NCBI GenBank assembly: GCA_018819405.1
Contig: JAHJQF010000001.1
Location: 513,377 to 577,376, forward strand
DNA length: 64,000 nt
Reading direction: 5' to 3'
From: Patescibacteria group bacterium
GTDB lineage: Bacteria; Patescibacteriota; Patescibacteriia; UBA1558; GWA2-36-10
Below the pieces are notes generated by a model, which was not told the origin of the DNA, searched no databases, and was given only the letters and a program-made list of their open reading frames with translations. Below, one piece after another: positions 9,744-63,328 of the stretch. Every line of letters starts with the position of its first letter. The first letter of the stretch is position 1. The translations under genes were made by a program, and so were the position numbers.

Positions 9744-10208
9744 ATGGCCGTAATTATCAATTATCCGGTAGTAGAAAAGCCGGCACCTCACTTTGAGGGC
9801 AATGCTGTAGGTAATGCCCTTTGGAATCTGCTACAACTGGAGCAGGAAGGACACATATTGCCGGAGCTGCAGTTCCATCTGCAAGGAGGGAGGGTTTTGA
9901 CCCGCATGAAATTGGTGTCCAGCCAGTGTAAGGTGGATGAATGTACTGGTCATGTCACGGTTGTGGCTCGGGCGGCTACTTCCTGTCACTGCCCCTGCAG
10001 TCTGCAGAGGCTTCACTTCGTCCCGGACAACGGGGTGGCTATCGAACACGATGGTTTGATTGTGGCGATGACAGTGGGCTACCCCAGCTGGGAAGCCTGG
10101 ACAGTCATTGAGAATACTCACCTCAAGATCAGGAAGACATTCAAGCCGGATGGCAGCGTCGAGACCGAGGACCTCAATTCCAAACAGCCCAAGGATAAGG
10201 TAGGCTAG
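9744..10208 (+). CDS. hypothetical protein in a GC-rich island
   Basis: 154-aa ORF of about 55% GC in a genome of about 35% GC. Strong GGAAGGGG ribosome-binding site 7 nt upstream. No recognizable family. A 96-aa antisense ORF at 9831-10121 is probably an artefact of the high GC. Confidence 0.45.
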   Translation: MAVIINYPVVEKPAPHFEGNAVGNALWNLLQLEQEGHILPELQFHLQGGRVLTRMKLVSSQCKVDECTGHVTVVARAATSCHCPCSLQRLHFVPDNGVAIEHDGLIVAMTVGYPSWEAWTVIENTHLKIRKTFKPDGSVETEDLNSKQPKDKVG

Positions 10209-17104: not shown

Positions 17105-17398
17105 TGAAAATTAAAATAACCCAAGACTAGTTAAGTCTTGGGACCCTGAGTGACTCCTAAGGAGTCAAACGGGCGGTTCCACCCAAGTTCCTCCTATAAA
17201 AGGAGGCAACTCATTTATTTTATTGAGATTTAGTCCCTGTTTTGAGGGATTCCATATGCTGGAAGAATAGTTGGTTGCTATTCCAATCATCTAAGGCGTT
17301 TATAATTATAGCTCATTTTAATATTTGTTGTAAACTATTGACAAAATAGTAAATACATGATATACTTAGATATTATTTTGAACTTTAAATTAGGTCAA
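17105..17398 (-). promoter_or_regulatory. putative T-box riboswitch leader of thrS (promoter, stem I, T-box, terminator)
   Basis: The minus strand reads GGAGGAACTTGGGTGGAACCGCCCG, matching the T-box core GGGUGGNACCGC. It is followed by the terminator CCCAAGACTTAACTAGTCTTGGG and a T-run. AACTTGGG of the T-box can pair with the 5' arm of the terminator as an antiterminator. A TTGACC-17-TAATAT promoter lies at 17370-17398 on the minus strand. A candidate ACC specifier sits in the loop CAACCAA. Confidence 0.5.
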
Positions 17399-17502: not shown

Positions 17503-18003
17503 ATGAAGAAGCTCACCATCCTGTTCGCTTTGGTGTTGACTCTGCTTGCTTTGACCACGATCTTGGTCAACAGGCATGAGGGTGGTGTCTACCGACTGGA
17601 AGTTTCCGGGGACAGCATCAGTGATATGGTTCGTCGAGGCAATTATGATTGGACCAACTCCAACATCAATGATGACTACTTCACTGCTGATGCTCCGCAC
17701 GAAGCGAACATCATTATTTTCAAGCACTTCGGCGAGGACATGAGCACGAAGGCCGTGCTCAAAGCTCTGGATGACGACGGCTTACGTCCGGCAACTATGT
17801 CCGAGCTACTCGAGCTTGGCATTTGCTATCCCGAATTGCAGAAGCAGTTTCCTATCGTCGCCCTCGGTTCTATCTCTCAGGATCCGTATGGCGACCGCTC
17901 TGTCGGTTTCCTCTACTCCGTTGATGGTCAGCGCGAGCTCGGCCTGGACTGGATCGACGATGACTGGTACGACCACTTTCGTTTCGCCGCTGTCCGCAAG
18001 TAA
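17503..18003 (+). CDS. secreted hypothetical protein in a GC-rich island
   Basis: About 55% GC. Strong GGAGG ribosome-binding site 8 nt upstream. N-terminal signal peptide MKKLTILFALVLTLLALTT. No recognizable domain. Confidence 0.5.
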   Translation: MKKLTILFALVLTLLALTTILVNRHEGGVYRLEVSGDSISDMVRRGNYDWTNSNINDDYFTADAPHEANIIIFKHFGEDMSTKAVLKALDDDGLRPATMSELLELGICYPELQKQFPIVALGSISQDPYGDRSVGFLYSVDGQRELGLDWIDDDWYDHFRFAAVRK

Positions 18004-26299: not shown

Positions 26300-27340
26300 A
26301 TGTTAAATCATCAAATAAAAATATATTTATTAATAACTGTCATTTTTATGGCAGTTATTTTGTTATATTTGGGCTTGAGAGACTTATTTAAAGACCAACA
26401 AGCTGTCTCTATGCCAACAGAGCAAAAACAGGAAGAAAATAGGTCTGATTTTAAGAGAAATCCTTTGACTGGATTGGAGCAGAAAGCTGATTTTTTTCCT
26501 ATTTCTATCATGTTTGACAATTCATATAATGTCCGACCTCAGCAGGGTTTGTCTGGAGCAGATATCGTCTATGAGGCATTAGCTGAAGGCAACATCACCA
26601 GAATAATGGGAGTTTTTGATAGCACTAAGTCGCTTGAAAAGATTGGACCAGTTAGGTCGGCTAGACCATATTTTATGGACTGGGCCGGGGAGTATGGTGG
26701 AGTTTATATGCATGTTGGTGGCAGTCCAGAGGCACTGACTAATATTTCCAAATATGATTTTATAAATATTGATCAGATTGGGGCTAGTGAAATTTATTTT
26801 TGGCGCGACAATAATCTTGACGCACCTCATAATGTGTTTACCTCATCTTCAAATTGGTTGAGAATAGGGGAGATAAAAGATGTGGCCAATATAGACAGAG
26901 AAACATTTTTTACTTATGTAGATTTTCCGGACCAGTATCCCAAAGAAAGATCATATATGCCACCACTGTCATTTATAGTAGATTTTTCATCCAATGATTA
27001 CAAAGTAGAATGGAAATTCAATGAAGCACTCAATGTGTATCAGAGATGGCAGGGTGATGAAAAACATCTTTATGAAAATGGTCAGCAGATAGCTGTCAAA
27101 AATGTGCTTGTTCAAGTGGCCAAATCTAGGATTATAGATGACAAAGAAAGACGCAGTATGGATAATAAAACTAGCGGAATAGCCTATCTAGTCAATCCGT
27201 ACGGATACCAGACTGGCACTTGGCAGTACAAAGATGGTTATACTTATTTTTATAAGGATGATGGAAATCCTATGGAATTTGTACCAGGTAAAACCTGGAT
27301 AGAGGTAGTGCCTAGTACAGAATCCTTTATTATAGAATAA
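26300..27340 (+). CDS. DUF3048 (YerB-like) domain protein
   Basis: N-terminal TM/signal. RPQQGLSGADIVYEALAEGNITR...RSARPYF resembles the DUF3048 N-domain. The alternative start at 26348 is possible. Confidence 0.45.
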   Translation: MLNHQIKIYLLITVIFMAVILLYLGLRDLFKDQQAVSMPTEQKQEENRSDFKRNPLTGLEQKADFFPISIMFDNSYNVRPQQGLSGADIVYEALAEGNITRIMGVFDSTKSLEKIGPVRSARPYFMDWAGEYGGVYMHVGGSPEALTNISKYDFINIDQIGASEIYFWRDNNLDAPHNVFTSSSNWLRIGEIKDVANIDRETFFTYVDFPDQYPKERSYMPPLSFIVDFSSNDYKVEWKFNEALNVYQRWQGDEKHLYENGQQIAVKNVLVQVAKSRIIDDKERRSMDNKTSGIAYLVNPYGYQTGTWQYKDGYTYFYKDDGNPMEFVPGKTWIEVVPSTESFIIE

Positions 27341-27354
27341 TTTATCCCCTAAAC

Positions 27355-27386
27355 ATCAATGTTTAGGGGTTTTTTGAAATAAATTT
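27355..27386 (+). terminator. rho-independent terminator
   Basis: cccctaaacatcaatgtttagggg followed by tttttt. Confidence 0.8.
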
Positions 27387-27487
27387 ATAATTTTAGCGTA
27401 GTATAGTATATAAGAGGAGAGGTTGAGTAAAATTAAAAGGGTCAGAATGAGAAACTCAACCGCCTCCTTTGGCCCTTTTAATTTTAT

Positions 27488-29368
27488 TTGCTAATCAAAA
27501 TTATGAAATTTAAAAATCCATTTATCCTTATTTGGAAACACAAGATTATTTCTTTACTTGTTTTGGTCGTTTTATCAGGCAGCGGTTATTTTTTTTATGG
27601 TCGTTTACACAAGACCGAAGCAAGTATAAATTATGTGACCCAAACTGCTTCAAAAGGCATGTTAGTTTCTAGTGTCAGTGGCAGTGGTCAAGTATCTTCA
27701 TCTAACCAGGTAGATATTAAGCCAAAAGTATCGGGAGATGTGATAGCTGTCAGCATGACAGTTGGTCAGGAAGTAAAAAAAGACGATGTTTTGGCCAAAA
27801 TAGATAGCGGCGATGCTTATAGACAGTATAATGATGCTAGAATCACCTACGAAAATGCTAAGTTGGAATTGGATGAGCTTTTGGCACCGCCTGATGATTC
27901 TGATTTACTCTCAGCCAAAAATTCTTTGGCTGATGCCCAGGATAGTCTGATCAAATTAGAGTTTAATCAAACACAGGATTATAATCAGGCGCAAAAAGAT
28001 ATTACAGACGCTGAAAAAGATCTTGAGGATTCATATGATGATATATACAATGACATATCTGATGCTTTTTTGGATTTTCCAGATATTTTGACGGAATTAA
28101 ATACGGTACTTTTTAGTGATGAAATTGCTGACAGTGAAGTGACTATAAATAATATTTCCAATAATTATGCCTTAGAAAATGCTTTCAACAACAATCATTA
28201 TGATGAAAGATCGCGTTTTGAAAGCTACATAGATGTAGCTGAAAACAATTATCAATCAGCCAAAGATAGTTATGATGTTAGCTTTGATAACTATAGAGAT
28301 ATTAGCCGTTATTCTAATAAGGATACTATAGAAAATCTATTAAGTGAGAGCATAGATACAGCTAAGAAAATTTCTGATGCTTTGAAAAGTCAAATAAATA
28401 TGCTTGATTTTTGGGTAGAGTATCGTATTGATAAAAACTTGTCCGTTTATAGTCAAGTTACTCAATATCAATCTGCGCTAGCTAGCTATACTTCTCAAGC
28501 TAATAGCCATTTAAGCGGTTTATTATCTGTAGAGCGTAGTTTAGACAATGCTAAACAAAGTATTGATGATGCCAAGGAAAATTTTGAGGAATTGAAACAA
28601 AACCAACCTCTTGATTTAGCATCTGCTGAGAGAAATTTAGTCGCCAAGCAACAAAATTTAGATGATCTTTTGGCTGGAGCTACAACTCTAGAAATAAAAA
28701 ATAAACAATTAAGCGTTCAACAAAAATATAATTCTTTTTTGGAGGCTAGTTCGGATTTAGCTGATCATTCTATCAAAGCGCCTTTTGATGGTGTGATTGC
28801 CTCAGTTGATGTGGTAGTTGGTGATACCGTTGGTTCTTCAGCTATAGCTTCTTTGATAACCAAACAAAATATTGCGGAAATTACTTTGAATGAAATTGAT
28901 GCCGCTCAGGTCAAGGTCGGTCAAAAAGTCACACTCACTTTTGATGCGGTGGAGGATTTGTCAGTAACAGGTGAAGTAGCTGAAGTAGATGCTATTGGTG
29001 AAGTGAATCAGGGAGTAGTGAGCTATGGTGTAAAAATTGTTTTTGATATTCAGGATGATAGAATAAAATCAGGTATGAGTACTAGTGTAAATATAATTAT
29101 AGAATCTAAAACAGATATTTTGTTAATACCTATTGGGGCGGTAAAAACGCAAGGATCTAGTAGTTATGTGGAGATAATGGATAATGGTCAGATAAAGCGT
29201 CAGACAGTAACCACTGGTCTAAGTAATGACACGATGATAGAAATTATTGATGGTTTGGAAGAAACTCAGGAAGTAGTGACCCAGACAATCAGTTCAGGTG
29301 GTTCATCTAGCAATACCAGTGGTAGTCAATCCGGACCAGATGAGAGGATGATGCTTAGGGCATTTTAA
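27488..29368 (+). CDS. HlyD-family periplasmic adaptor (MacA-like) with long coiled coil
   Basis: N-terminal TM helix, a biotinyl/lipoyl-like hairpin and a long coiled-coil region, as in membrane-fusion proteins. Confidence 0.7.
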   Translation: MLIKIMKFKNPFILIWKHKIISLLVLVVLSGSGYFFYGRLHKTEASINYVTQTASKGMLVSSVSGSGQVSSSNQVDIKPKVSGDVIAVSMTVGQEVKKDDVLAKIDSGDAYRQYNDARITYENAKLELDELLAPPDDSDLLSAKNSLADAQDSLIKLEFNQTQDYNQAQKDITDAEKDLEDSYDDIYNDISDAFLDFPDILTELNTVLFSDEIADSEVTINNISNNYALENAFNNNHYDERSRFESYIDVAENNYQSAKDSYDVSFDNYRDISRYSNKDTIENLLSESIDTAKKISDALKSQINMLDFWVEYRIDKNLSVYSQVTQYQSALASYTSQANSHLSGLLSVERSLDNAKQSIDDAKENFEELKQNQPLDLASAERNLVAKQQNLDDLLAGATTLEIKNKQLSVQQKYNSFLEASSDLADHSIKAPFDGVIASVDVVVGDTVGSSAIASLITKQNIAEITLNEIDAAQVKVGQKVTLTFDAVEDLSVTGEVAEVDAIGEVNQGVVSYGVKIVFDIQDDRIKSGMSTSVNIIIESKTDILLIPIGAVKTQGSSSYVEIMDNGQIKRQTVTTGLSNDTMIEIIDGLEETQEVVTQTISSGGSSSNTSGSQSGPDERMMLRAF

Positions 29369-29373
29369 AATAT

Positions 29374-30081
29374 ATGATTGAATGTAAAGATATAGTAAAA
29401 ATATACAAAACTGGAGATAGTGAGCTAAAAGTTTTGAAAGGCGTATCTTTTAAAATAGAAAAAGGTGAATTTGTAGCTATTATTGGTCCATCAGGTTCTG
29501 GTAAATCTACTTTGATGCATATTTTGGGAGCTTTAGATAGACCAAGTAGCGGTAGCTATATTTTGAACGGAAAAAATATTTTGGAATTTAGTGATGATGA
29601 TTTGGCTGATATTAGGTCACAACAAATTGGTTTTGTATTTCAGAGTTTTAATTTGCTATCTCGGGCAAGTGTGCTCAGAAATGTTCTATTACCTTTGATA
29701 TATAATACTAAAATCCTTAAGAGTAAAAGGATAAAAATGGCCGAAGAAGCTTTGATGGCATCTGGTCTTGATAAAGATCGTTGGCACCATTTATCAAATC
29801 AGCTGTCAGGTGGACAAATGCAGAGAGTAGCTATTGCCAGGGCGCTAGTCAATGAGCCGGACATTATTTTGGCTGATGAGCCGACTGGTAATTTGGATAC
29901 TAAAACTGGAGATATTGTGCTTTCAACTTTCAAAAAATTAAATAAAGAAAAAGGCCACACTATTGTATTGATTACTCATGAACGTTATGTAGCGGAACAT
30001 GCTGATAGGATTATAGAAATAAGAGATGGGGAGCTCATATCTGATAAAAGTACTAATAATGAATTATTAAAAGATAAATAA
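29374..30081 (+). CDS. ABC transporter ATP-binding protein (MacB/LolD-type)
   Basis: Walker A GPSGSGKST, signature LSGGQMQRVAIARAL and Walker B ILADEPTGNLD. Confidence 0.9.
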   Translation: MIECKDIVKIYKTGDSELKVLKGVSFKIEKGEFVAIIGPSGSGKSTLMHILGALDRPSSGSYILNGKNILEFSDDDLADIRSQQIGFVFQSFNLLSRASVLRNVLLPLIYNTKILKSKRIKMAEEALMASGLDKDRWHHLSNQLSGGQMQRVAIARALVNEPDIILADEPTGNLDTKTGDIVLSTFKKLNKEKGHTIVLITHERYVAEHADRIIEIRDGELISDKSTNNELLKDK

Positions 30082-30085
30082 TTTT

Positions 30086-31312
30086 ATGTTATTTTCTGAT
30101 TTAAGCCAAGAAACATATTTTTCCCTTTCGTCAAACAAATCAAGATCAATTTTGACTATCTTAGGTATTGTTATAGGCATTGGTTCTGTTATTACTATGA
30201 TTTCTATCGGTCAGGGTGCGGCAAAAAATATTGAAGCCAATATTCAGTCGCTAGGCTCAAATCTTTTAATTGTCATGCCCGGATCGCAGCGTTCAGTTGG
30301 TCAAGTCGCCAGAGGTGGATCTGGTTCAGCTACTACTTTGGTTTTGGATGATTCTACAGCAATTGCTGAAGCTATCAGTTCGGCTGATGCTATCGCTCCG
30401 ACAGTTACTTCAAGAAAACAGATCAAGACCACGACTGGTACAAATACCAATACTAGTATTTATGGGGTGACAGAAAGTTATGGCACTATAAAGAGTATTA
30501 GCATGGAGTCTGGTAATTTTATCAATGATAATTATGATAAAAAATTATCAAAGGTAGCTGTTTTGGGTCCGACTACTAGAGATGATTTATTTGGTGAGAA
30601 TGTAGACCCAACAGGACAAAAAATCAGAATTGATAATACAGAATTTACTATTATTGGTGTGACTGAATCAAAAGGAGGTAGTGGTTTTACCAATGCGGAC
30701 GATATTATTTATGTGCCACTCTCCACTGCTATGAAATATATCACTGGTAGCGAATCACTAAGTAATATAAATATTCAGATAACGGAGAGTGATTTAATGA
30801 CCTCAGCCCAAGAACAAGTTAATAGTTTATTACTTGCTAGACACAATATTGTTGATCCAACAGCGGCTGATTTTAGTATAGTTAATCAGGCGGATATTAT
30901 AGATACTGCTACTTCGGTGACAGATACTATGACTTTGCTTTTGGGGGCTATAGCTGGTATTTCTCTTTTAGTGGGTGGTATTGGTATTATGAATATGATG
31001 CTTACTACTGTCACGGAAAGAACCAGAGAAATAGGGCTTAGGAAATCTTTGGGTGCGAAAAATAATGATGTTAGTATTCAATTTTTAGCTGAATCCGTTG
31101 CTCTTACTTTTATTGGGGGTGTTATAGGAATTTTTATAGGTTGGCTGGCTTCAATTATAGTTACCAAGTTGAGCGGTACTACTACAGCAGTTACTTTATT
31201 CTCAGTACTTTTGGCTTTTGGTGTGTCAGCTTTTATTGGCATTGTTTTTGGCTATTATCCGGCTAGACGAGCTGCTAAATTAAATCCTATAGAAGCTTTG
31301 CGTTATGAATAA
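30086..31312 (+). CDS. ABC transporter permease, FtsX/MacB family
   Basis: 408 aa. An N-terminal TM helix, a large periplasmic domain and three C-terminal TM helices give the FtsX-like topology. Confidence 0.8.
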   Translation: MLFSDLSQETYFSLSSNKSRSILTILGIVIGIGSVITMISIGQGAAKNIEANIQSLGSNLLIVMPGSQRSVGQVARGGSGSATTLVLDDSTAIAEAISSADAIAPTVTSRKQIKTTTGTNTNTSIYGVTESYGTIKSISMESGNFINDNYDKKLSKVAVLGPTTRDDLFGENVDPTGQKIRIDNTEFTIIGVTESKGGSGFTNADDIIYVPLSTAMKYITGSESLSNINIQITESDLMTSAQEQVNSLLLARHNIVDPTAADFSIVNQADIIDTATSVTDTMTLLLGAIAGISLLVGGIGIMNMMLTTVTERTREIGLRKSLGAKNNDVSIQFLAESVALTFIGGVIGIFIGWLASIIVTKLSGTTTAVTLFSVLLAFGVSAFIGIVFGYYPARRAAKLNPIEALRYE

Positions 31313-31327
31313 TTTATTTTAAAAAAT

Positions 31328-31963
31328 ATGAAGAAAAATCATTTTATTTACATTTTTATTTTATTAGGTTTATTTTTTCTTTCTGGTTGTTCAAAAAATA
31401 AAATAAATAATTCTGAGACAAATACCAACATTCAACCAGATAATAGCTGGCAGGAAAATTTTGATGAGGTATCAGTTGGCGAATTTGTTTTGGGTGAGCG
31501 AGTAAGTGTTATGGGGGAGGAAAATTCAGAGGGAAGTATTGTAGCAACTAGTATTATTTTAATACCCAATGGACAGGAATTTCAAAATTTTGACCCGCCT
31601 GATATGGTAAACAATGTGCCTGATCAAAATAAAGAAAACTTTCCTACTAACAACATTAATAATACTGACCAGCCAAATTTTGATAGGGCAAGTCGTCCAG
31701 ATTTTCAAAATATGAGCGAAGAGGAGAGGCAAGCTAGGAGAGAACAGCTTATGGATAGTGGTGCTACTGCTGGCAATGTTAATCGAGCAGGACTTGGTGG
31801 CAACGCTCGTATCAATGGTGAGATATTGTCAATTAATGATAGCGGATTGACTATCAAATTAGCTGATGGTGGATCAAAATTGGTATTTTTTTCTAGTGAT
31901 ACTAAATTTCTAGCACCAAAAGCAATAAGTGATATAGAATCTCAAGAAGTGACAGAAGAATAA
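31328..31963 (+). CDS. lipoprotein (hypothetical), N-rich
   Basis: Lipobox FFLSGC after a signal peptide. Low-complexity N/Q-rich linker. Confidence 0.5.
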   Translation: MKKNHFIYIFILLGLFFLSGCSKNKINNSETNTNIQPDNSWQENFDEVSVGEFVLGERVSVMGEENSEGSIVATSIILIPNGQEFQNFDPPDMVNNVPDQNKENFPTNNINNTDQPNFDRASRPDFQNMSEEERQARREQLMDSGATAGNVNRAGLGGNARINGEILSINDSGLTIKLADGGSKLVFFSSDTKFLAPKAISDIESQEVTEE

Positions 31964-31965
31964 AA

Positions 31966-32012
31966 AAAATTAGACCCCGCACAGTTTGCCTATGCGGGGT
32001 CGATCTTTTTGG
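31966..32012. terminator. bidirectional terminator
   Basis: gaccccgca...tgcggggtc followed by gatcttttt. Confidence 0.75.
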
Positions 32013-32175
32013 CGGCAGCCGAATGTACATGGCTGCCTTCGTTTTTATGGACCTTGGTGATACGGAATTTTCCAAGCCTTTCTACTTTGATTTCCTGGCC
32101 GACTGACAGGTCAGTTTCAGAATCGTATCTGAAAGTAGACACTGGCGAGCCGTAGAAGATTACCCAAATATGCAT
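31990..32175 (-). CDS. small hypothetical protein (61 aa), GC-rich with a strong ribosome-binding site
   Basis: The internal ATG at 32175 is preceded by CAAGGAGG. About 47% GC. A hairpin with a T-run (aacacta...tagtgtt) lies just upstream. The track ORF starts at 32211, but the ribosome-binding site supports 32175. Confidence 0.4.
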   Translation of the reverse strand: MHIWVIFYGSPVSTFRYDSETDLSVGQEIKVERLGKFRITKVHKNEGSHVHSAAAKKIDPA

Positions 32176-32251
32176 GGAGAGCCTCCTTGCTCGAGGAAAA
32201 GAAAAAAACACTAGAACGAAAGAGTATAGTGTTTTTATTGTTTTTTGTCAA

Positions 32252-33088
32252 CTAGTTGGTGATTTTGGCTACTCGGAAGTGGCCAGCCAGATCTTTGATA
32301 AATTTGATTTTTACAAGAGGCATGTTTTCACTTATGATTTCTTCTATAGCCTTTTTTTGTTGGGGATCTATTTCTATAAGCACTAGATATTTTTTGGCTA
32401 AGTAGGTATTTATTTGGCCAAACATTTTTCGGTAATGATCTAATCCATCTTTGCCTGACAAGAGAGCTATTTTTGGTTCTTTTTTTATAGATTTTTCTTT
32501 GAGTTGTTCTGGTGTCAGATAAGGGAGATTGGCTATTATAATATCAAATTTTTGAGCTTTTATATTTTTGAGTAAATTGGATTTTAGGAATTTGATTTTT
32601 TTACTTAAACCAAGTTTGCGCGCATTGGTTCTGGCAGTTTTAAGAGCTTTATCAGATATATCAACAGCTGTATAAGAGGAGGTTTTTGGATTATTTTTGG
32701 CTATGGACAAAATCAGACAGCCACTACCTGTGCCAATATCTAGTATACTATTTTCTTTTTTTATATTTTTTAGCGCTTCTTCAACTATCAATTCACTTTC
32801 AGGGCGGGGGACAAGAGTATTTTTGGAGACCAAAAATTTGAGCCCATAAAATTCTCTGTAGCCTTTTAGATAAGCTAGTGACCAATTATCTTGTCTTTTT
32901 TTGATTAATTTATAAAAAGCTCTGACAGCCGCGGGGCCTATTTTTTTATCAGGATTTTTGTAGATATATTCTTTGGATTTTTTTAGAGACAAAGCTAAAA
33001 GATCATCAAGTTCAGCTGGCTCAAGTTGGCCAGCTGATTTTTGCAGTATTTCTTTTATTGTTTTTTTTGATCTTTGGCTGCTTGCCAT
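32252..33088 (-). CDS. prmC: release factor glutamine methyltransferase
   Basis: SAM motif DIGTGSGCL and the NLPY substrate motif. Downstream of prfA. Confidence 0.8.
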
Positions 33089-34570: not shown

Positions 34571-34649
34571 AGTATTTTTAAAATTTGATACTACAACACA
34601 ATAGCAGAAAGTCCATAAAAAGTCAACCTGTCTGCTGGTAAGCTGGGGG

Positions 34650-34693
34650 TATGAAAAAAAAGAGCCCCCGCCGCGCTTGGCGCGGCGGGGGCT
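34650..34693 (-). terminator. GC-rich rho-independent terminator of the GC-rich operon
   Basis: gcccccgccgcg cttgg cgcggcgggggc. The minus strand continues tcttttttttc. Confidence 0.75.
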
Positions 34694-34708
34694 GGTAAGG
34701 TATGGTCA

Positions 34709-34981
34709 TCAAATCCTCTTGAGAACGAGGTTTTTGATGTCCACCTCAAAGGGGCGGGGGACCAGGGGAACGGCCACCCGCACCATCAGGTCAAAGCCGA
34801 CTACGCAGTTGCTATTCGCTTCGTCGATGATGATGTGCGTGACGGTGGGTACGCTGAGCATGGTGCCTTGGGTACCGACCGGGATCTTGATGTCACCATC
34901 GTTGCCGGGGACAGTATAGTCCTCGACAAAAGTGATCTTCTGTCGCCAGAAGCTGCCGTCAACGGGGATTCTTTTTTCCAA
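34709..34981 (-). CDS. hypothetical 90-aa protein (GC-rich operon, gene 3)
   Basis: TTG start with AAGGAGG 7 nt upstream. About 55% GC. No recognized family. Confidence 0.45.
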   Translation of the reverse strand: MEKRIPVDGSFWRQKITFVEDYTVPGNDGDIKIPVGTQGTMLSVPTVTHIIIDEANSNCVVGFDLMVRVAVPLVPRPFEVDIKNLVLKRI

Positions 34982-34996
34982 GTCTTTCCTCCTTGA

Positions 34997-35182
34997 TTAG
35001 TTGTTCTGGACGCGGATCTTGGTGGCGGGGTTTTGGTCGGCCTTCGAGGTCTGGAGTTGGATATGACGGCACTTGGTGTCGCCGTCTTCGGCGTGGGACT
35101 GGTGCACTTTGCACCACTGTCCTTGAATCAGGCAGGGTTTGGCTTTCAGTGAAGGACTAAAAGCCTGGCAGCTTTGGCACAT
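34997..35182 (-). CDS. Cys-rich 61-aa protein (GC-rich operon, gene 2)
   Basis: MCQSCQAF...C...C...C carries five Cys residues (CxxC plus three more). Abuts gene 1. Confidence 0.4.
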   Translation of the reverse strand: MCQSCQAFSPSLKAKPCLIQGQWCKVHQSHAEDGDTKCRHIQLQTSKADQNPATKIRVQNN

Positions 35183-35183
35183 C

Positions 35184-35645
35184 TCAATCTCCTTGTTCGG
35201 TGTAGTAGTGTTCGGTCGGGTAGTCTGGTAGGGATAACCCTAAAAACATGACTAAACTCATCAGCCCCATGAGAAAAGCGGATAGTACACAGACCCGAGG
35301 CACGGCCAACGAAGATGAATTGACAAAAAGCCAACTGACCCAAGTGACCCCGATGGATACTTTTAGCAGTACAAAGCCATCATTTTGCTGGCCAATAGTG
35401 GCTACGATCAACATTATGCCGGCCAGACTGGGCAGAATAGACAACCAATTGTAGTCTAGGAGCATCAGCGGACCACTGATGCCCAAAAGCACCATGGCCA
35501 GTACTTCGCGCCAGTTGGTCAGCGGACGGGCAAAGGTTAGCCCGACGATGGTCAGGCCCAAGCCGACCACGACAGGCTGGCTGTTGAATAAGGCTATAGC
35601 CAGCATGGTAAAAGCCGACAGGATGGTCAGTAGAACGGATTTCAT
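35184..35645 (-). CDS. integral membrane protein, 4-5 TM (GC-rich operon, gene 1)
   Basis: 153 aa, highly hydrophobic, GC-rich. GGAG-like ribosome-binding site upstream of the ATG at 35645. Confidence 0.5.
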   Translation of the reverse strand: MKSVLLTILSAFTMLAIALFNSQPVVVGLGLTIVGLTFARPLTNWREVLAMVLLGISGPLMLLDYNWLSILPSLAGIMLIVATIGQQNDGFVLLKVSIGVTWVSWLFVNSSSLAVPRVCVLSAFLMGLMSLVMFLGLSLPDYPTEHYYTEQGD

Positions 35646-35870
35646 GGTTTGTCTCCTTGAGTCAGGGTTTTAGCAGATGCGGAGGGTACAGAAGGTGTTG
35701 ATGTCTTCCGGAAAAGTAACCTATGTTTTTACCCCTTATCTTATGCGGATGTAAAATAACTTTAACTAGTATATATAAACTAATTTTGTCTTTTTTGTCA
35801 ATGATGTATTTAGGCCTTGCTTTTTTTGAATTTTTATGTTAAATTAATGTCTGTTTAATTTTAATTCACC

Positions 35871-35930
35871 CCGTTAAATCCCCAACGGGCTAATCCGCTA
35901 GGCGGATTATTTAACGGGGTCAACAAGTAT
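35871..35930. repeat. CCCCGTTAAAT / ATTTAACGGGG palindrome with an inner TAATCCGC/GCGGATTA hairpin
   Basis: Upstream of rpsB. Same TIR type as 17055 and 46736. Confidence 0.6.
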
Positions 35931-36028
35931 TTTGCCTGTGATTTTGGCATCCTTCCCCATTTTGGGGCGCTAAAATCAGTAAAATACGGGTAAAGCCCGC
36001 TTTTGGCGAGGCTAGAAAGGAAAGAAAT

Positions 36029-36709
36029 ATGAGTTTACCAACACTAGAAGAACTTTTGAAGAGTGGTGTCCATTTTGGTCATCAGACTTCCAAAAGATAT
36101 CCAAAAGCGGCTTCTTATATCCACAGCCAGCGTGGCGGAGTACATATCATTGATTTGCAAAAAACCGTAGAAGGTCTGCAAAAAGCTATTGATTTTGTGA
36201 CCAAGCTGACCAAAGGAGGAGGCCTTATTTTATTTGTCGGCTCCAAAAAACAAGCCAAGGCAATTGTAAAAGAACAGGCCATTGGTTGTGGTATGCCATA
36301 CATTATTGGTCGCTGGTTGGGTGGGACTTTTACCAATTTTGAAAATATCGTCAAACTTACCAAAAAATTGGAAAAAATGGAGCGCGAAGAAGAAGATGGT
36401 ACTTGGGATCTTTATACTAAAAAAGAACAAGTAGTTTTCAAAAAAGAAATGGAAAAGCTTCAGGAGAATGTCGGTGGTATCAAACAAATGAAAAATTTGC
36501 CAAAAGCAATCTTTGTAGTTGATATCAAAAAAGAAAAAACCGCTATTGCCGAAGCCAATAAGATGAAAATTCCGGTCATTGCTATGGTTGATACTAATGT
36601 CAATCCAGAACTGGTTGATTATCCAATACCGGCCAATGACGACGCACTCAAATCAATTGAAATTATTACTAGCCTCTTGGCTGATGCTGTCAAAAAAGCT
36701 AGAGTTTAA
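36029..36709 (+). CDS. rpsB: 30S ribosomal protein S2
   Basis: LLKSGVHFGHQT...IHIIDL is canonical uS2. Confidence 0.95.
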   Translation: MSLPTLEELLKSGVHFGHQTSKRYPKAASYIHSQRGGVHIIDLQKTVEGLQKAIDFVTKLTKGGGLILFVGSKKQAKAIVKEQAIGCGMPYIIGRWLGGTFTNFENIVKLTKKLEKMEREEEDGTWDLYTKKEQVVFKKEMEKLQENVGGIKQMKNLPKAIFVVDIKKEKTAIAEANKMKIPVIAMVDTNVNPELVDYPIPANDDALKSIEIITSLLADAVKKARV

Positions 36710-42381: not shown

Positions 42382-42453
42382 CCCCCGTTGGTCCAATTGG
42401 ACAGGACACCTGCCAGTCAGGTAATATAGGTTCAAATCCTATACGGGGTACCA
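42382..42453 (+). tRNA. degenerate tRNA-like element (T-arm + acceptor + CCA, abnormal D/anticodon arms)
   Basis: Good T-arm ATAGG-TTCAAAT-CCTAT and a 3' acceptor ACGGGGT-A-CCA. The D region is the perfect palindrome GTCCAATTGGAC and the anticodon arm folds with a 5-nt loop. Either a tRNA pseudogene or an unusual tRNA. Confidence 0.3.
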
Positions 42454-45749: not shown

Positions 45750-46742
45750 ATGGCCAAAGCAAATAAAAAAATATATTTACTCTTAGCTGGCGGTACTTGT
45801 ATTTTGGATAAAGATAGCCGTATTTTTGCAATTAATGAAAAAAAAGACATTGATTATTGGTTTGATTTAATGCCAGAGCTGCGTATTTTGGCTGACATAG
45901 AAACAGTTTTGATTTCTAGCGAAGACCAAGTAGTAGACACTAGTGTCTGGCAGAAAATTGCCAAGAGTATTGTAGACAGAGAAAAATCAGCCGATGGTTT
46001 TGTAGTAGTGACAAAAATAGACCAACTTGTCAACACCTCTTTAGCAATTAATTTTTTGTTGCAGAATTTTAAAAAGTCTATTATTTTTACCAGTTCCCAA
46101 GTCAGCGGCAGTAGTTTTGTAGACAAAAAAGAAGTAATAAATAAACTAAAATCAAAACACGGTGGGTTAGGCCTAAGGACCAATTTGATAAACGCTATTC
46201 AAATTGCTTGTGAGCCTCTTCCACAGACAGCTGTTTTGTTTGGTACTAGGTTAATCGCTTCTACCAAAGCAATAGTAGATCTTCAGGATAGTATAAACAA
46301 TTTTATCAGTGTGGAAGGTAATTATTTAGCCAAAATTGATTTTGGTATAAATTTGAAATCGGGACTCAAATATTCCACCAAAAAAACAGAGATTTATCCC
46401 AGTATGTCAGCCAAAGTTTTGGCAATCTATGATATCCCAGGTATTGATTGGCAGTTTGAGCAAACTGATATGGCTAAATACGACGGGCTATTTATCAAAA
46501 TATCTCCCTTTCAAAACCTTGAAAATGTCAAAATAAAAAAAATAAATAATTGGAAAATACCGACAGTAATTTTTAATTCACGATATGTACCAGTTGTAAA
46601 AGGAGCGGTATCTGTATCAGGTTGTACTTTTAACTCAGCTCTTATCAAAACTATTTGGGCCTTGTCAAACAAAAAGAAACTACCAGATTTTGAAAATGTG
46701 ATGAAGCAAAATATAATTGGTGAGTTTAATTCACCCCGTTAA
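45750..46742 (+). CDS. asparaginase/glutaminase-family protein (putative)
   Basis: N-terminal IYLLLAGGTCIL resembles the TGGTIAG threonine motif of L-asparaginases. About 330 aa. The C-terminal SPR* is encoded by the palindromic element. Confidence 0.4.
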   Translation: MAKANKKIYLLLAGGTCILDKDSRIFAINEKKDIDYWFDLMPELRILADIETVLISSEDQVVDTSVWQKIAKSIVDREKSADGFVVVTKIDQLVNTSLAINFLLQNFKKSIIFTSSQVSGSSFVDKKEVINKLKSKHGGLGLRTNLINAIQIACEPLPQTAVLFGTRLIASTKAIVDLQDSINNFISVEGNYLAKIDFGINLKSGLKYSTKKTEIYPSMSAKVLAIYDIPGIDWQFEQTDMAKYDGLFIKISPFQNLENVKIKKINNWKIPTVIFNSRYVPVVKGAVSVSGCTFNSALIKTIWALSNKKKLPDFENVMKQNIIGEFNSPR

Positions 46743-46760
46743 ATAAATTTAAATCATAAT

Positions 46761-47018
46761 ATGAATCATTATGTATATATATTAAAAAGTAAGAAAGATA
46801 ATAACTTCTATGTAGGTTATACTAAAGATTTAAATTTAAGATTTAAGCAACACCAAGAAGCTAAAGTAGAATCAACTAAAAACAGAAGACCATTAAATTT
46901 GATATATTATGAATGTTGTTTAAATCAACAAGATGCTACTAAGAGAGAAAAATATTTAAAAACATATCTTGGTAGATATTATATCAAGAAAAGGCTTAAA
47001 TCTTATTTAACGGGGTAA
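46761..47018 (+). CDS. GIY-YIG nuclease family protein (85 aa)
   Basis: YVYILKS...NFYVGYTKDLNLRFKQH is a GIY-YIG motif. The gene is flanked by CCCCGTTAAAT (46736-46746) and ATTTAACGGGG (47005-47015), and its stop lies in the right repeat. Confidence 0.7.
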   Translation: MNHYVYILKSKKDNNFYVGYTKDLNLRFKQHQEAKVESTKNRRPLNLIYYECCLNQQDATKREKYLKTYLGRYYIKKRLKSYLTG

Positions 47019-47020
47019 AT

Positions 47021-47581
47021 ATGAAAATTTATTTTTATACCAATCAGGAGCTAAATAACACTGACGCCAAAGAAATTATCAATCACTTGAGGCGGGCAGA
47101 TATTGAGGTCATTAGTAGCTTGAGTAGCTCTTCAGATACGCAACTTGAAAGAGTGGATGCTTTTGTTTTTCAGGGACAAAAATTTGATACTAAGGCTGGA
47201 TATTTGACAGCTCTAGCTTTGGCGCAGAGCAAAGAGGTGCTTTGTCTTTTGCCTAGTGGTAGCAAAATTGATAGCTCGTTGGCCAGCCTGAGAGATAATA
47301 GGAATTTGGCCAAGCATTTATTGGTAGAATTTTATACTGATAGTGACTTGTCAGATAAACTGGAAAAATTTTTGACCAAATTGGACAAAAAAACTATCCG
47401 GGATTTGTTTAATATCAAATATACTTTGAGAGTATCGGGCAAGATAAATGATTATCTCAATTGGAAAGCCAGAGAAAAATCTGTCAAAAAAGCCGACTGG
47501 ATAAGGGACAACATACAGGATTTGATGAAAAATGATGAGAAATATCAGGATTTTTTAAAAAATAAATTTAAGGCTGGCTAA
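47021..47581 (+). CDS. hypothetical protein (possible nucleoside 2-deoxyribosyltransferase-like N-domain)
   Basis: ADIEVIS...DAFVFQGQKFDTKAGYLTALALAQSKEVLCLLP loosely resembles the NDT/Rcl fold. Low confidence. Confidence 0.3.
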   Translation: MKIYFYTNQELNNTDAKEIINHLRRADIEVISSLSSSSDTQLERVDAFVFQGQKFDTKAGYLTALALAQSKEVLCLLPSGSKIDSSLASLRDNRNLAKHLLVEFYTDSDLSDKLEKFLTKLDKKTIRDLFNIKYTLRVSGKINDYLNWKAREKSVKKADWIRDNIQDLMKNDEKYQDFLKNKFKAG

Positions 47582-54368: not shown

Positions 54369-55388
54369 ATGTTTTGCTGGCTTACCGTTAACAGATCTTG
54401 TAACATGCGTTGCCATTGGTGCTACGCTAAAGAAAAGATTGATAGTTCTTCTAGTATGACTCTAGATGTTCTGGAGTCAATATTGAGTGTGGTGGCTAAT
54501 AAACCAATAAACGTTTTTACACTTATTGGTGGAGAGCCAACCATACACAAAGATCTATCGTCTTTCATCAAGCGCCTCAAGCCATCACGAGTAATGATGG
54601 TAAGTAATGGTTTGAGATTGGCAAATATGTCATATTTGTTCAATCTCAAGGAGAGTGGTTTGGATGTAGTAGCTCTTTCTTTGAAAGGGGCAAATCAAGC
54701 GGAGTACCTAAAAAACACTGGTGTGCCAGGATTGGATAAGGTAGAACGGGCGGTAGCTAATATGAATGCTTTGGGCATGCAGTACAATATTTCGGTTACG
54801 TTTTCAGATAGTGTCATGGATTCGTTGCCGATGATATTGGATTGGATGCAATCATCCAATGCTCAAAGTATGTCTATAAACTATTGCCGACCTTATGTAG
54901 TCGACGGTAGAATCAGTGCACAGGGGGTTCCTAGCCCCGTAGAGATGGCAGAAAGGACAGTGCAGAGTTACGAGCTGATCAGGAAAAGCGGAGTACGCTG
55001 TACCTTTTCTTTCTTGTTGCCGCTGTGTTTGTTGCCGCGGGAGTTTATTGACTTGCTAGTCTCAAGGAATGAACTCTCAACAATCTGTCAACTTCAGAAG
55101 CATACAGGTATCATTTTTGAACCAGATGGTAGTCTAATCCCTTGTCATCATTTGTTTGACTACAAGCTCGGGAAGCTTGGAGAGGATTTTACTACCGCTG
55201 CGGAATTTGATACCTTTATGGAAGGAGGTAAAATATCAAGGTTTTATCGTAAGACAGGCGGTTTTCCACACGAAAAATGTTTGTCTTGCGATTTGCGAAC
55301 AAGGTGTGGTGGAGGCTGCTTGGTACAACACCTGCAGTATTCTCCTAGTGAATTAATACCCCAAGCTTTTGAAAGGATGGAGAAATGA
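54369..55388 (+). CDS. radical SAM / SPASM-domain peptide-modifying enzyme
   Basis: CNMRCHWC (CxxxCxxC) at the N-terminus. C-terminal SPASM CLSCDLRTRCGGGC. Start at ATG 54369, preceded by AAAGGAG. Confidence 0.8.
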   Translation: MFCWLTVNRSCNMRCHWCYAKEKIDSSSSMTLDVLESILSVVANKPINVFTLIGGEPTIHKDLSSFIKRLKPSRVMMVSNGLRLANMSYLFNLKESGLDVVALSLKGANQAEYLKNTGVPGLDKVERAVANMNALGMQYNISVTFSDSVMDSLPMILDWMQSSNAQSMSINYCRPYVVDGRISAQGVPSPVEMAERTVQSYELIRKSGVRCTFSFLLPLCLLPREFIDLLVSRNELSTICQLQKHTGIIFEPDGSLIPCHHLFDYKLGKLGEDFTTAAEFDTFMEGGKISRFYRKTGGFPHEKCLSCDLRTRCGGGCLVQHLQYSPSELIPQAFERMEK

Positions 55389-60898: not shown

Positions 60899-60928
60899 TT
60901 GACAGTCTTTTTTTGTTGTTATATATTT

Positions 60929-60975
60929 AGAGTAGAAGCTAGAGACGGCTATAAATATAGCGACGGCTCTAAACA
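60929..60975 (+). promoter_or_regulatory. palindromic operator-like motif, copy 2 (upstream of the NTase-GNAT operon)
   Basis: GCTATAAATATAGC-GACGGCTCTAAACA preceded by the half-site AGAGACGGCT. Same core as 54279-54306. Confidence 0.5.
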
Positions 60976-61033
60976 TAGCTCTTTAAAATAAAGAGAGAAA
61001 GGTAATTGACTTCCTAAGAGAAAGGAGGAAATC

Positions 61034-61987
61034 ATGACTCAGCAAACTTTGTGTTGCTACGATTTGATTATGGTCAGGTCGGGCGAAATACTCACAATAA
61101 ATGGTAACTTTGATGGAGAATATTGCCGTGCTACTTTGAGCTTGTTTCCCTCTTCTATGGGGAATAGGCTTATAGACGGCCGTGTATATAAGAAAGCAAC
61201 TTATGAGTTGGGATATAAGATTCCCTACGTCAGGAAGATATTAGATTTACCTGGTCAGCAGCAGTTTTTGGTAGACAGGAACAGCATCGTCAGAGTGTAT
61301 TCTGCAAGGAGAGCTTTTGACTCTTTGTCCTTTCAGGATAAAATTAGGACGCGTTTGTTCATGGACTATCTGGGTCTAGATTACAATTTTCACGGTTTGA
61401 CTGGTAGTAGTGCATCGGGCTGTCGGCTCTCTGACTCTGACTTTGATTGGGTTTTGTATACCAATCAATTATGGTCAGTTAAACAGAGGGTAGTTGATGT
61501 CCCTAGGATGTTGACTTTCGATATGCAACACGCTTATCGAAAGTATCATGTCTTTGAGGTGCTGTCTAAGCAGGACATAGATTTGATTTTTGGCAATAAG
61601 TGGAAGTATCTATGGTTTTGCGGTCTGCACATATCAGTTAATTTTGTTGATATGGCTGTACGCGCTGACCACCTTTGCGATACTGACAATTGCCGAGATC
61701 GTCTTGTTTTGCGAGGTAGGGTAATAGATGGGAAAGGCTCCTATTACTCTCCTTATGTCATTCCATTCGAAAGCGATGGGCAGACGTACCAGATACTCAC
61801 TTGGCTTTATTTGTATAATGGAGCCTTTGCATCTGGTGACCTAATAGAGCTATCAGCTCGGAGAGGATCTTTTGGAGGGCAGGAGTATTTGGTAGTCGAA
61901 AGACCACCAGATTACATTCGTAAGTTGGTCTGCAAGGATGGAGGAGGCTATGTCTCTGATAGACTATATTCAGCTAGTAGTAGCTGA
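61034..61987 (+). CDS. Pol-beta-superfamily nucleotidyltransferase (cGAS/DncV-like arrangement)
   Basis: GLTGSSASGCRLSDSDFDW gives GS-x9-SDSD at residues about 115-133, with the acidic DIDLIF about 60 aa later. Ribosome-binding site GAAAGGAGG. About 42-45% GC. Confidence 0.5.
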   Translation: MTQQTLCCYDLIMVRSGEILTINGNFDGEYCRATLSLFPSSMGNRLIDGRVYKKATYELGYKIPYVRKILDLPGQQQFLVDRNSIVRVYSARRAFDSLSFQDKIRTRLFMDYLGLDYNFHGLTGSSASGCRLSDSDFDWVLYTNQLWSVKQRVVDVPRMLTFDMQHAYRKYHVFEVLSKQDIDLIFGNKWKYLWFCGLHISVNFVDMAVRADHLCDTDNCRDRLVLRGRVIDGKGSYYSPYVIPFESDGQTYQILTWLYLYNGAFASGDLIELSARRGSFGGQEYLVVERPPDYIRKLVCKDGGGYVSDRLYSASSS

Positions 61988-62447
61988 AGACAGTAGAATC
62001 GTCGAGTTGTGTGAGTTTTTGAGTCGGGAGGACATAGACCGTTCTTTTGTCCTACCATTGTCTAGTAGGGACATTAGCATTAGAGAAAGGGTGGTAAAAA
62101 TACAAAAGCAAGGTTTTTGGTTGCTGGCTATACATGGAAACAAAATAGTTGGCTGCCGTGGCTGCAAAGGAATTGTTGACGAAAAGGAGGATATTTTGGA
62201 GTTTTCCACCACAGTTGTTGACCCTAGTTATCGGGGGATTGGTTTGGGGATGCTTATCTTCCGACAAGGGGTCAAGTTAGCTCGTGATCGGTATAAGCCC
62301 AAAGTCGTGAGGATGGACAGTACGCCTGATAATGAAGCCATCAAGAGGATGGCTGCCGATTCAGGTTTTGTTGTAAGTCGTATCTACGACGATCCTGTAA
62401 AAAGAGGCTCTGGAGGAAAGTCAATCGAATATATTCTCTGTTTATAG
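61950..62447 (+). CDS. GNAT family N-acetyltransferase
   Basis: Motif A VVDPSYRGIGLGMLIFRQGVKLA. Ribosome-binding site GGAGGAGG. Overlaps the NTase by 38 nt. Confidence 0.65.
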   Translation: MSLIDYIQLVVAEDSRIVELCEFLSREDIDRSFVLPLSSRDISIRERVVKIQKQGFWLLAIHGNKIVGCRGCKGIVDEKEDILEFSTTVVDPSYRGIGLGMLIFRQGVKLARDRYKPKVVRMDSTPDNEAIKRMAADSGFVVSRIYDDPVKRGSGGKSIEYILCL

Positions 62448-62515
62448 CCCCTGTGCCACAAGGTGCAGGGGCATCCAATATTGTTAGTTGTTTGATAAAT
62501 TATTATAATAAATGT

Positions 62516-63328
62516 ATGAAAATAAAGATATTAGGATCAGGAGCTTGGCAAGGTATTCCAGCATCGTTTTGTAACTGCGATATTTGTCAGAAGGCATCCA
62601 AAAATTTATATACTAAAGACGCTCGTACTCGTCCACAATTTATGGTTGAGACCAAACAGGGGACTTTCTTGATGGAAATAAGCCCTGATATAAGGCTGCA
62701 ATCCACCAGGTTTTCTTTACCAAACGTTAATAATTTTTTAGTAAGTCATTGGCATTTTGATCACATGTATGGTTTGCATGAACTTTTGACTTGGTCAAAG
62801 GGATTGGAGACTAGGCCATTGTTATACGGATCTGTTGCCACAAAAGATAAAATAGATAAAGAATTTAGTTATTTGCCATTTGATTTTCAGTTGTTAGAGC
62901 CCTATAAAAAATTTAATATTTTCGGGGTAGATATAACACCATTGCCTTTATATCATGCATTTACAATAGATGAAGAATTTTCAGAAAATGATATTAATAA
63001 CACTTTTGGATATATGCTGGGGCATGAAGGAAAAAAAGTAGTTTATTTATCAGATTATTATAAAGTACCGCAGAAAGTTTTGGATAAAATCAAAGGAGCT
63101 GATGTGTTGATTGCAGACGGCACTTATCTTTTTACTGATAAGTTCAGAGGAATAAAACTAAATCATTTGCATAATGTAGATATATTGCAGTTAGTTGATA
63201 AAATTCAGGCAAAACAAGTTTATTTTCATAGTATTTCCCATTTGACCAGTTTGAACCATCAGGAAATGCAAGAAAAATTGTCAGAAAACCATTTTATTTC
63301 ATACGACGGTTTAGAAATTGATCTTTAA
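62516..63328 (+). CDS. PhnP-like MBL-fold phosphodiesterase
   Basis: CNCDIC (CxCxxC) near the N-terminus plus SHWHFDHMYG (HxHxDH). Start at the internal ATG (MKIKILGSGA). Confidence 0.55.
   Translation: MKIKILGSGAWQGIPASFCNCDICQKASKNLYTKDARTRPQFMVETKQGTFLMEISPDIRLQSTRFSLPNVNNFLVSHWHFDHMYGLHELLTWSKGLETRPLLYGSVATKDKIDKEFSYLPFDFQLLEPYKKFNIFGVDITPLPLYHAFTIDEEFSENDINNTFGYMLGHEGKKVVYLSDYYKVPQKVLDKIKGADVLIADGTYLFTDKFRGIKLNHLHNVDILQLVDKIQAKQVYFHSISHLTSLNHQEMQEKLSENHFISYDGLEIDL

Follow-up and report, generated by a model that had tools for sequence, protein, structure and literature searches.

A small GC-rich operon of orphan proteins between rpmE and rpsB in a Patescibacteria genome, probably of foreign origin

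The stretch of DNA analysed here (the window) comprises 64,000 nucleotides (64 kb) of a contig of about 1.036 Mb from a Patescibacteria group bacterium. It contains a GC-rich island in the gap between two ribosomal protein genes: rpmE (ribosomal protein L31; 34211-34570, minus strand), followed by prfA and prmC, and rpsB (ribosomal protein S2; 36029-36709, plus strand), which is divergent from rpmE and from the island genes and is followed by tsf and pyrH. An original prediction, made from the sequence alone, had placed here a GC-rich three-gene operon encoding a 153-aa membrane protein, a 61-aa Cys-rich protein and a 90-aa soluble protein, and had proposed that it was recently acquired from another organism. 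The three open reading frames (ORFs) were recovered at these sizes, and guanine-plus-cytosine (GC) content was 52.6 % across the island (34611-35746) versus 36.2 % across the whole window. From about 34600 to 35700, GC content in 200-nt windows ranged from 0.47 to 0.56, and in 300-nt windows across the 64 kb (mean 0.362, standard deviation 0.058) the island peaked at 0.57, with a sharp step on either edge. The limits first proposed, 34650-35700, lie within the island, which proved slightly wider when delimited by the loss of nucleotide homology to a relative, L001, whose homology ends at window positions 34610 and 35747. About 1.2 kb of extra DNA separates the back-to-back rpmE and rpsB promoters, and the spacer between rpsB and rpmE measures 1458 bp in the window and 1428 bp in L001.

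Mis-assembly, a concern raised alongside the original prediction, does not explain the island. A Logan assembly of SRR6514730 (L004) matched the window at 100 % identity along 14,837 bp that take in both junctions, and a homologous GC-rich module, with gene order and orientation preserved, occupies the same site in L001-L003, three assemblies from another study that represent one related organism. The module is therefore real and contiguous. By our own estimate, the chance of a 153-codon open frame at approximately 54 % GC is roughly 0.002; together with the conservation of each of the three frames in a second genome, this makes the ORFs more than chance occurrences.

All three genes lie on the minus strand and are transcribed towards rpmE. 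Gene 1 (35184-35645; present in the ORF table and annotated by NCBI as hypothetical protein KKH39_02825) encodes the 153-aa membrane protein, for which an AlphaFold single-sequence model of low confidence (predicted local distance difference test score, pLDDT, 55) gave six predicted helices at residues 2-21, 24-38, 45-64, 67-85, 91-108 and 114-138. Both orthologues carry positive charges at the N-terminus and in loop 2, and the L001 orthologue also in loop 4; from the positive-inside rule applied to these two sequences, the protein is probably oriented N-in/C-in, its C-terminal tail being acidic. Polar residues are conserved at N44, E47, S57, T83, K95 and S122.

Gene 2 (34997-35182; in the ORF table, with AAGGAG 6 nt upstream) encodes the 61-aa protein, whose five cysteines, as originally described, stand at positions 2, 5, 17, 24 and 38. 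They form part of the pattern M-C-x2-C-x11-C-x6-C-x2-H-x2-H-x7-C, after which comes a variable, hydrophilic tail, strongly basic in the L001 copy. Residues M1, C2, C5, C17, G21-Q-W-C24, H27, S29-H30-A31, D33-G-D-T36 and C38 are invariant in both lineages, suggestive of a small metal-binding domain for which zinc is the probable ligand. The exact sequence was not present in the protein collection searched, and the gene is missing from public annotation, given that the NCBI accessions of its 153-aa and 90-aa neighbours run consecutively.

Gene 3 (34709-34981; NCBI hypothetical protein KKH39_02820, with the same start) begins with TTG, 6 nt downstream of AAGGAGG, and encodes the 90-aa soluble protein, in which we found neither a signal peptide nor a conserved metal ligand. 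The protein is probably rich in beta strands; its AlphaFold single-sequence model was unusable (pLDDT 39). An exhaustive phmmer search returned only two repetitive Calx-beta proteins, matching residues 7-58 with E-values of 2e-8 and 1e-7 that are summed over three to five repeats, and comparison with the Calx-beta profile (PF03160) by hhalign was weak (probability 27 % over 44 columns).

The signals around these genes support an operon that is self-contained, in that it brings a promoter-like site, ribosome-binding sites and a terminator of its own. A candidate promoter at 35772-35801 (minus strand), within AT-rich DNA, consists of TTGACA (35801-35796), a spacer of 17-18 nt and TTATAT/TATATA; this placement is inferred from its likeness to the consensus. 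The -35 hexamer and its surroundings are kept in L001 (TTGACA-18-TAAATT). Downstream, a putative 5' untranslated region (35646-35771, minus strand) ends with AAGGAG (35653-35658), 7 nt before the ATG of gene 1. Gaps of 1 nt and 15 nt separate the 153-aa from the 61-aa gene and the 61-aa from the 90-aa gene, respectively, as had been claimed, and AAGGAG precedes the start of all three genes by 6-7 nt. The full AAGGAGG first ascribed to both downstream genes was found only at the 90-aa gene; the 61-aa gene has AAGGAG, and so does the membrane gene, which had been credited with a GGAG-like site. The GC-rich intrinsic terminator (34654-34693, minus strand) likewise stood, with a 14-bp stem at 34663-34693 (13 G-C pairs) and a 3-nt loop, although its run of T residues is T8 and not T9. 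It sits immediately upstream of an rpmE promoter-like site (34598-34626, minus strand; TTGACT-17-TATTGT with TG in front) that is kept in L001 and in a more distant relative, L007, and marks the host-side boundary of the island. In this arrangement transcription would start at the sigma-70-like promoter beside that of rpsB, head towards rpmE and end at the hairpin-T8 terminator just before the rpmE -35 hexamer (34626), which would shield the rpmE promoter from read-through and thereby leave rpmE-prfA-prmC under their own control. The three genes would be translated by means of their AAGGAG sites and close coupling, in a genome nearly devoid of such sites.

A structured non-coding RNA was considered for the island and rejected: an Rfam search returned no match at E <= 1, conservation is in frame and at the protein level, and folding relative to shuffled sequences was weak. 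Mean z-scores were -1.2 and -0.9 for the module transcripts versus -0.05 and -0.37 for host genes, and the module signal was alike on both strands and dominated by the terminator. An integron-type cassette was also discarded, since the hairpin at the 3' end amounts to an ordinary terminator and none of the loci read showed a recognisable integrase gene. There is no tRNA near the island, and no paralogues of the module were found elsewhere in the window.

Comparison with L001 carries most of what can be said about conservation. Synteny between L001 and the window extends to either side of the island, with nucleotide identities of 78-87 % in the flanks. Flanking proteins are 95 % (L31) and 94 % (S2) identical over the part aligned by tblastn (90 % and 94 % over the full length) and 89-90 % identical for RF1, whilst the host protein PrmC is only 67 % identical. 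Between the limits of homology, L001 holds 1181 bp at 50.7 % GC, encoding on the plus strand, in order, a 62-aa Cys/His-rich ORF, a 145-aa membrane protein, a 57-aa protein and an 86-aa ORF, followed by a hairpin terminator. Gene 1 matched the 145-aa protein (BLASTP, 31 % identity, E 5e-12). Gene 2 matched the 57-aa protein, which begins MCQPCQ...GQWC..H.SHADDGDTLC and starts 1 nt after the 145-aa gene (47 % identity, E 1e-16). Gene 3 matched the 86-aa ORF, which has a TTG start behind AAGGAG (23 % identity, E 2e-5), and the two share the TTG start and an IPVD N-terminus. The first L001 gene (6702-6890, plus strand), behind AAGGAG and joined to the membrane gene by an ATGA overlap, is a fourth gene without counterpart in the window. 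An antisense 160-aa ORF called on L001 (7375-7857, minus strand) was set aside as not conserved and probably spurious.

Best tblastx matches between the two modules lie in the annotated frames. The ratio of non-synonymous to synonymous substitution rates (dN/dS) between the window and L001 was 0.28 for gene 1, 0.22 for gene 2 and about 1.1 for gene 3, compared with 0.04-0.07 for the ribosomal and translation-factor genes of the flanks and 0.23 for prmC. On these ratios, genes 1 and 2 are real and under purifying selection.

More distant relatives supplied the empty site that the original prediction had proposed to look for. A metagenome scan for L31 gave 80 loci among the matches listed, the genome of the window itself not being among them, and none of these 80 other loci encoded the module proteins. 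The divergent rpsB/rpmE-prfA arrangement was found in at least 19 L31 loci, with a spacer of 114-307 bp in 15 of the 19. In L007, whose L31, S2 and RF1 are 74 %, 75 % and 68 % identical to those of the window, the spacer is 238 bp at 33 % GC, and in the alignment the -35 hexamers of the divergent rpsB and rpmE promoters lie only about 20 bp apart. Between those hexamers, the window and L001 hold the GC-rich unit together with some 65 bp of AT-rich sequence (about 35752-35815). The two copies of this stretch are 81 % identical; it carries the candidate operon promoter (TTGACA-17/18-TTATAT in the window, TAAATT in L001) and is missing from the empty site of L007. Four other lineages have spacers of 635-1463 bp, which in L012, L017 and L023 contain an unrelated membrane or lipoprotein-like gene, indicating that the rpsB-rpmE spacer tolerates insertions. 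Homology of the gene 1 protein to the spacer membrane proteins of L012 and L023 was considered and dropped.

Both the composition and the translation signals of the module differ from those of host genes, as had been claimed, and these differences support a foreign origin. Its GC excess lies mainly at third codon positions, where GC content is 0.61-0.74 in the window module and 0.48-0.75 in that of L001, versus 0.25-0.33 in the flanking host genes. Outside GC-elevated regions, host genes in the ORF table (61 entries, including a spurious one that overlaps tRNA genes) have A/T-rich upstream regions with no match longer than the 5-nt AAGGA. In the window as a whole, only a handful of gene-opening start codons follow a six-base Shine-Dalgarno (SD) core (AAGGAG, AGGAGG or GGAGGT). 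These are the starts of the three module genes, of the 61-aa mini-ORF at 32175, of the radical S-adenosylmethionine (SAM) gene at 54375 and of the 317-aa gene at 61034, with an internal start near 6683 as a possible addition. The 16S rRNA, and with it the anti-Shine-Dalgarno sequence, lies outside the window.

Whilst foreign origin was supported, on composition, SD use and the empty site, the claim that the acquisition was recent was not. L001 holds positional homologues of all three genes even though the flanks differ at 46 % of four-fold degenerate sites, and the insertion therefore most likely predates the split between the window lineage and L001 and postdates the split from L007-like lineages. 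We argue vertical descent from the shared position, gene order and promoter segment and not from a clock, since synonymous sites are near saturation. In the flanks, 46.5 % of four-fold sites differ between the window and L001 and their GC content is 0.36, which in a two-state model places the flanks at 74 % of saturation, such that each lineage would keep about half of the initial GC excess. The module has a four-fold GC of 0.63 in both lineages, for which the model requires approximately 0.88 at the split. Such a value, although high, is what a genome of approximately 65-70 % GC would normally show. Under this model, a high-GC donor is quantitatively plausible, and a single old transfer with neutral amelioration would be a sufficient account, although the data are not proof of it. 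The module would have entered the common ancestor of the two lineages once, from an SD-using and very GC-rich donor (four-fold GC about 0.88), and slow amelioration would then have taken both lineages to the present value of 0.63. Taken jointly, we lean towards a genuine protein-coding accessory operon of foreign origin, derived from one ancestral transfer and perhaps specifying a membrane complex of addiction or defence type.

Several observations weigh against this joint reading. Near-saturation of synonymous sites is itself one, and the weak/strong difference at four-fold sites of the module (0.47 +/- 0.07, n = 51) fits common descent (0.41) and unrelated sequences (0.47) alike. Only two lineages carry the module, so that all statements of conservation are pairwise. 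Gene 3, with a dN/dS of about 1, may be barely constrained, being kept in length, start and N-terminus and barely in sequence. The structure models of genes 1 and 3 are both of low confidence, and the candidate operon promoter was not among the sites listed by a consensus promoter scan. No homologue in a potential donor was found in any protein, phage, plasmid or genome collection searched, and the family, PDB and structure searches were empty, leaving the functional guess without direct support from them. At the island, we found no target-site duplication and no flanking direct or inverted repeats beyond chance, and no mobility or recombinase gene was recognised in the loci read, where no systematic search for one was made.

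The searches behind these negatives bear out the original statement that no protein family could be recognised. Module proteins of both lineages had no match in Pfam, PHROGs, PADLOC or NCBIfam (Pfam, NCBIfam and PADLOC at E <= 1), and the defence models of PADLOC-DB provided no family for the seven module proteins of the two lineages. Sequence and profile searches of the PDB with the module proteins, and Foldseek searches of the models against the PDB, were likewise without match. Word-indexed protein searches with all three proteins returned self matches or none. Species-representative genomes scanned for the Cys-rich protein and viral contigs scanned for all three proteins gave none, and tblastn of the module against phage and plasmid records gave no match. 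A back-translated scan for the motif C-x2-H-x2-H-x-[DE]DGD-x2-C picked up 26 genome stretches, all of them chance matches or His/Cys repeat proteins, and nothing in viral contigs. When 20 flanking proteins were looked up in clusters at 90 % identity, all were singletons except L31 and a 317-aa protein.

The ambiguity of the four-fold sites opens the way to a different history, in which each lineage received a different allele of a diverse, GC-rich module family after the split, through recombination within the conserved flanks (promoter and terminator) or repeated insertion at a permissive hot spot. We regard this as unlikely, albeit deserving of attention. Module proteins that are 23-47 % identical beside flank proteins at 89-95 % would be expected from such exchange, and the breakpoints of homology coincide exactly with the limits of the transcribed region, with the adjoining promoter segment still 81 % identical. 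Module differences at four-fold sites match the expectation for unrelated sequences, unrelated cargo is present in the spacers of L012, L017 and L023, and recent exchange among these bacteria is suggested by a 2.4-kb segment of the window that is 93 % identical to another lineage whose neighbouring DNA is 69 % identical. However, the divergence of PrmC, a host protein, shows that fast vertical divergence of weakly constrained small proteins would be enough to explain the low identities, and parallel amelioration would be expected to give the two modules the equal four-fold GC observed. A third allele or a donor pool appeared in none of the collections searched, no repeats were found, and the loci read contained no recognised recombinase gene (again with no systematic search made for one).

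It is also conceivable, if improbable, that GC-richness is being maintained and is not in decay, either by selection on the transcript (for stability or structure in an AU-rich cell, or for rare codons in a membrane protein) or by GC-biased gene conversion, in which case composition would say little on the time of origin. Third-position GC is indeed high in both lineages despite near-saturated synonymous divergence, the module transcripts fold slightly better than shuffles relative to host genes, and the plan of a GC-rich transcribed region behind a TTGACA -35 in AT-rich DNA recurs in two or more other small genes of the window. The neutral model nonetheless fits without selection given a donor four-fold GC of about 0.88, the folding signal has the strand symmetry and terminator dominance described above, and no Rfam match was obtained. 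Finally, acquisition by this single genome in recent times, or a chimeric or contaminated assembly, would account for the sharp GC step at both edges and the orphan proteins, but is scarcely credible given that a second lineage carries the homologous module at this very site and that an independent assembly is identical across both junctions.

Returning to the single ancestral transfer, the gene products suggest a tentative function. The six-helix N-in/C-in membrane protein would anchor a complex with the cytoplasmic Cys5His2 protein, which probably binds zinc, and the small beta-rich protein, and the module would serve as a dispensable accessory of addiction or defence type. The latter guess draws on circumstantial traits only: the module is small and tightly packed, its genes are fast-evolving orphans, and it has persisted in two streamlined genomes. 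A housekeeping role is disfavoured because the module is absent from the 80 other L31 loci among the matches listed and from every collection searched. We put forward a membrane-anchored complex with a metal-binding partner, working as an addiction- or defence-type accessory module, as a possibility well short of an assignment.

A metal-handling system, in which the Cys/His protein binds or buffers a metal, the membrane protein moves it and the 90-aa protein acts as a chaperone-like partner, seems doubtful. The five Cys and two His residues of gene 2 are invariant and its N-terminus reads M-C-x2-C, and L001 carries the second Cys/His-rich gene (62 aa) translationally coupled upstream of its membrane gene. 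In the two-orthologue alignment, by contrast, not one His, Cys, Met or Asp of the membrane helices is conserved, the 90-aa protein lacks a conserved metal ligand and a signal peptide, and no Pfam or NCBIfam match to HMA, MerT/P, CopC/D or similar families was obtained even at E <= 1. An equally doubtful, more speculative reading would make the module a member of an undescribed class of small GC-rich, SD-dependent operons under selection in an AT-rich genome whose other genes nearly all lack SD sites, with at least three to four in the window. On this reading the module would encode a new membrane and zinc-protein system, for example for addiction, defence or host interaction, without database relatives at present.

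Very unlikely, in our judgement, is a bacteriocin or modified-peptide locus with the Cys-rich peptide as product and the polytopic membrane protein as immunity factor. A small Cys-rich peptide does adjoin a small polytopic membrane protein, in a locus of fast evolution and patchy distribution; the peptide, however, has no leader or export signal, its conserved Cys/His core resembles a structural metal site, a transporter, protease and modifying enzyme are all missing from the operon, and the sole radical SAM gene seen is 19 kb off. That gene (54375-55388, plus strand; Pfam E 5e-19) follows AAGGAG, has a mildly raised GC content of 0.42 and is succeeded by a 172-aa protein without Pfam match; we found no link between it and the Cys-rich protein.

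Similar islets occur elsewhere in the window. One at 9744-10208 (plus strand) encodes a 154-aa protein with only sub-threshold Pfam matches (GC 0.53, third-position GC 0.63), and another at 17503-18003 (plus strand), with a 3' region extending to about 18160, encodes a 166-aa protein whose N-terminal part includes a hydrophobic segment (GC 0.53, third-position GC 0.66). In both, a GC-rich transcribed region with an SD site lies behind a TTGACA -35 set in AT-rich DNA, encodes an orphan protein and ends in a hairpin terminator. The SD-led mini-ORF at 31990-32175 (minus strand; 61 aa), also followed by a hairpin terminator, has a similar look. No informative Pfam match was obtained for the proteins of these three loci, and the islet proteins share no sequence relationship with each other or with the module between rpmE and rpsB.

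On the rpsB side of the island, the leader at 35866-35922 can form a stable branched hairpin (-26.6 kcal/mol, z = -4.0) without Rfam match, which is absent in L001 and shorter in L007, and an insertion of about 21 nt relative to both L001 and L007 lies just before the rpsB start (about 36005-36025). The motif TTAACGGGGT occurs nine times in the window at <= 1 mismatch versus 2.6 expected (5028/5126, 17054/17096, 22926, 35868/35911 and 46733/47007), mostly as inverted pairs forming intergenic hairpins, often just upstream of thrS, dnaE, rpsB and a gene at 47021. It looks like a repeated 5'-leader or repetitive extragenic palindromic (REP)-like element. Upstream of thrS, a hairpin-rich region at 17136-17299 (minus strand) gave a weak match to the T-box model RF00230 (29.7 bits versus a gathering threshold of 93, E 2e-4), and is probably a divergent T-box controlling thrS. 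A third tRNA, unreported by ARAGORN, was identified by Rfam at 42382-42450 (plus strand; 45.6 bits) between tRNA-Ala and tRNA-Ser.

Other segments of the window differ between lineages. The segment at 60899-63343, which encodes a 317-aa orphan protein (its gene having AAGGAGG) together with a GNAT acetyltransferase and a protein of metallo-beta-lactamase fold, is 93 % identical over 2.4 kb to L111 (7233-9673), whose neighbouring DNA is only 69 % identical, which suggests recent exchange between Patescibacteria lineages. A 90 % match to L111 is also present at 46729-47022, beside a GIY-YIG gene. Between the DUF3048 gene and prmC (about 27310-32425), the window has approximately 5 kb more than L001, with a MacB-type ABC efflux operon (periplasmic adaptor, ABC ATPase and FtsX-type permease) and a 211-aa lipoprotein-like gene as cargo.

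What the module offers is a well-delimited and apparently old foreign islet in a streamlined, episymbiont-type genome, with three orphan families that include a conserved 61-aa gene overlooked by annotation. The contrast in initiation signals, with host genes nearly free of SD sites and GC-rich islets led by them, suggests that foreign genes may be recognisable by this feature and perhaps translated differently. The donor fit at a four-fold GC of about 0.88 gives the idea of a high-GC partner organism, which formed part of the original prediction, a concrete and falsifiable form.

Among known systems, tripartite and membrane-toxin toxin-antitoxin modules, such as SpoIISA/B/C of Bacillus, combine a membrane protein with very small cytoplasmic partners. 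Our module is similar, with no homology implied, in pairing a membrane protein with one or two tiny partners in a tight, patchily distributed and fast-evolving operon, but its gene order and sizes differ and its proteins have no similarity to toxin or antitoxin families (Pfam, NCBIfam and PADLOC, E <= 1). The 61-aa protein recalls zinc-ribbon and treble-clef proteins in its C-x2-C ... C-x2-H arrangement, additional Cys/His residues and hydrophilic tail (strongly basic in L001), yet neither Pfam nor a PDB sequence search gave a match, even with E-value limits of 1 to 10, and its spacing fits no family tested. For the 90-aa protein, a length of about 90 aa would suit a single beta-sandwich domain and phmmer gave weak similarity to the Calx-beta domain (PF03160); against this, the E-values are inflated by repeats, there is no Pfam match and the profile-profile probability is only 27 %. 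As regards the islet as a whole, genomic islands have been reported in Patescibacteria, and 61.6 % of genes in horizontally acquired regions of their genomes have no assigned function (PMC12455944). Compared with such islets of Patescibacteria and the candidate phyla radiation (CPR), the module is very small (1.1 kb, three genes), is most likely older than the split of two lineages and has no mobility gene recognised or repeats found, but it shares their atypical composition, genes of unassigned function, an empty site in relatives and core-gene flanks. The module is most likely a small horizontally acquired islet of orphan proteins, of a kind already known; as a fairly ordinary example, it adds modestly to that picture through its unannotated Cys/His gene, the SD contrast and the amelioration fit.

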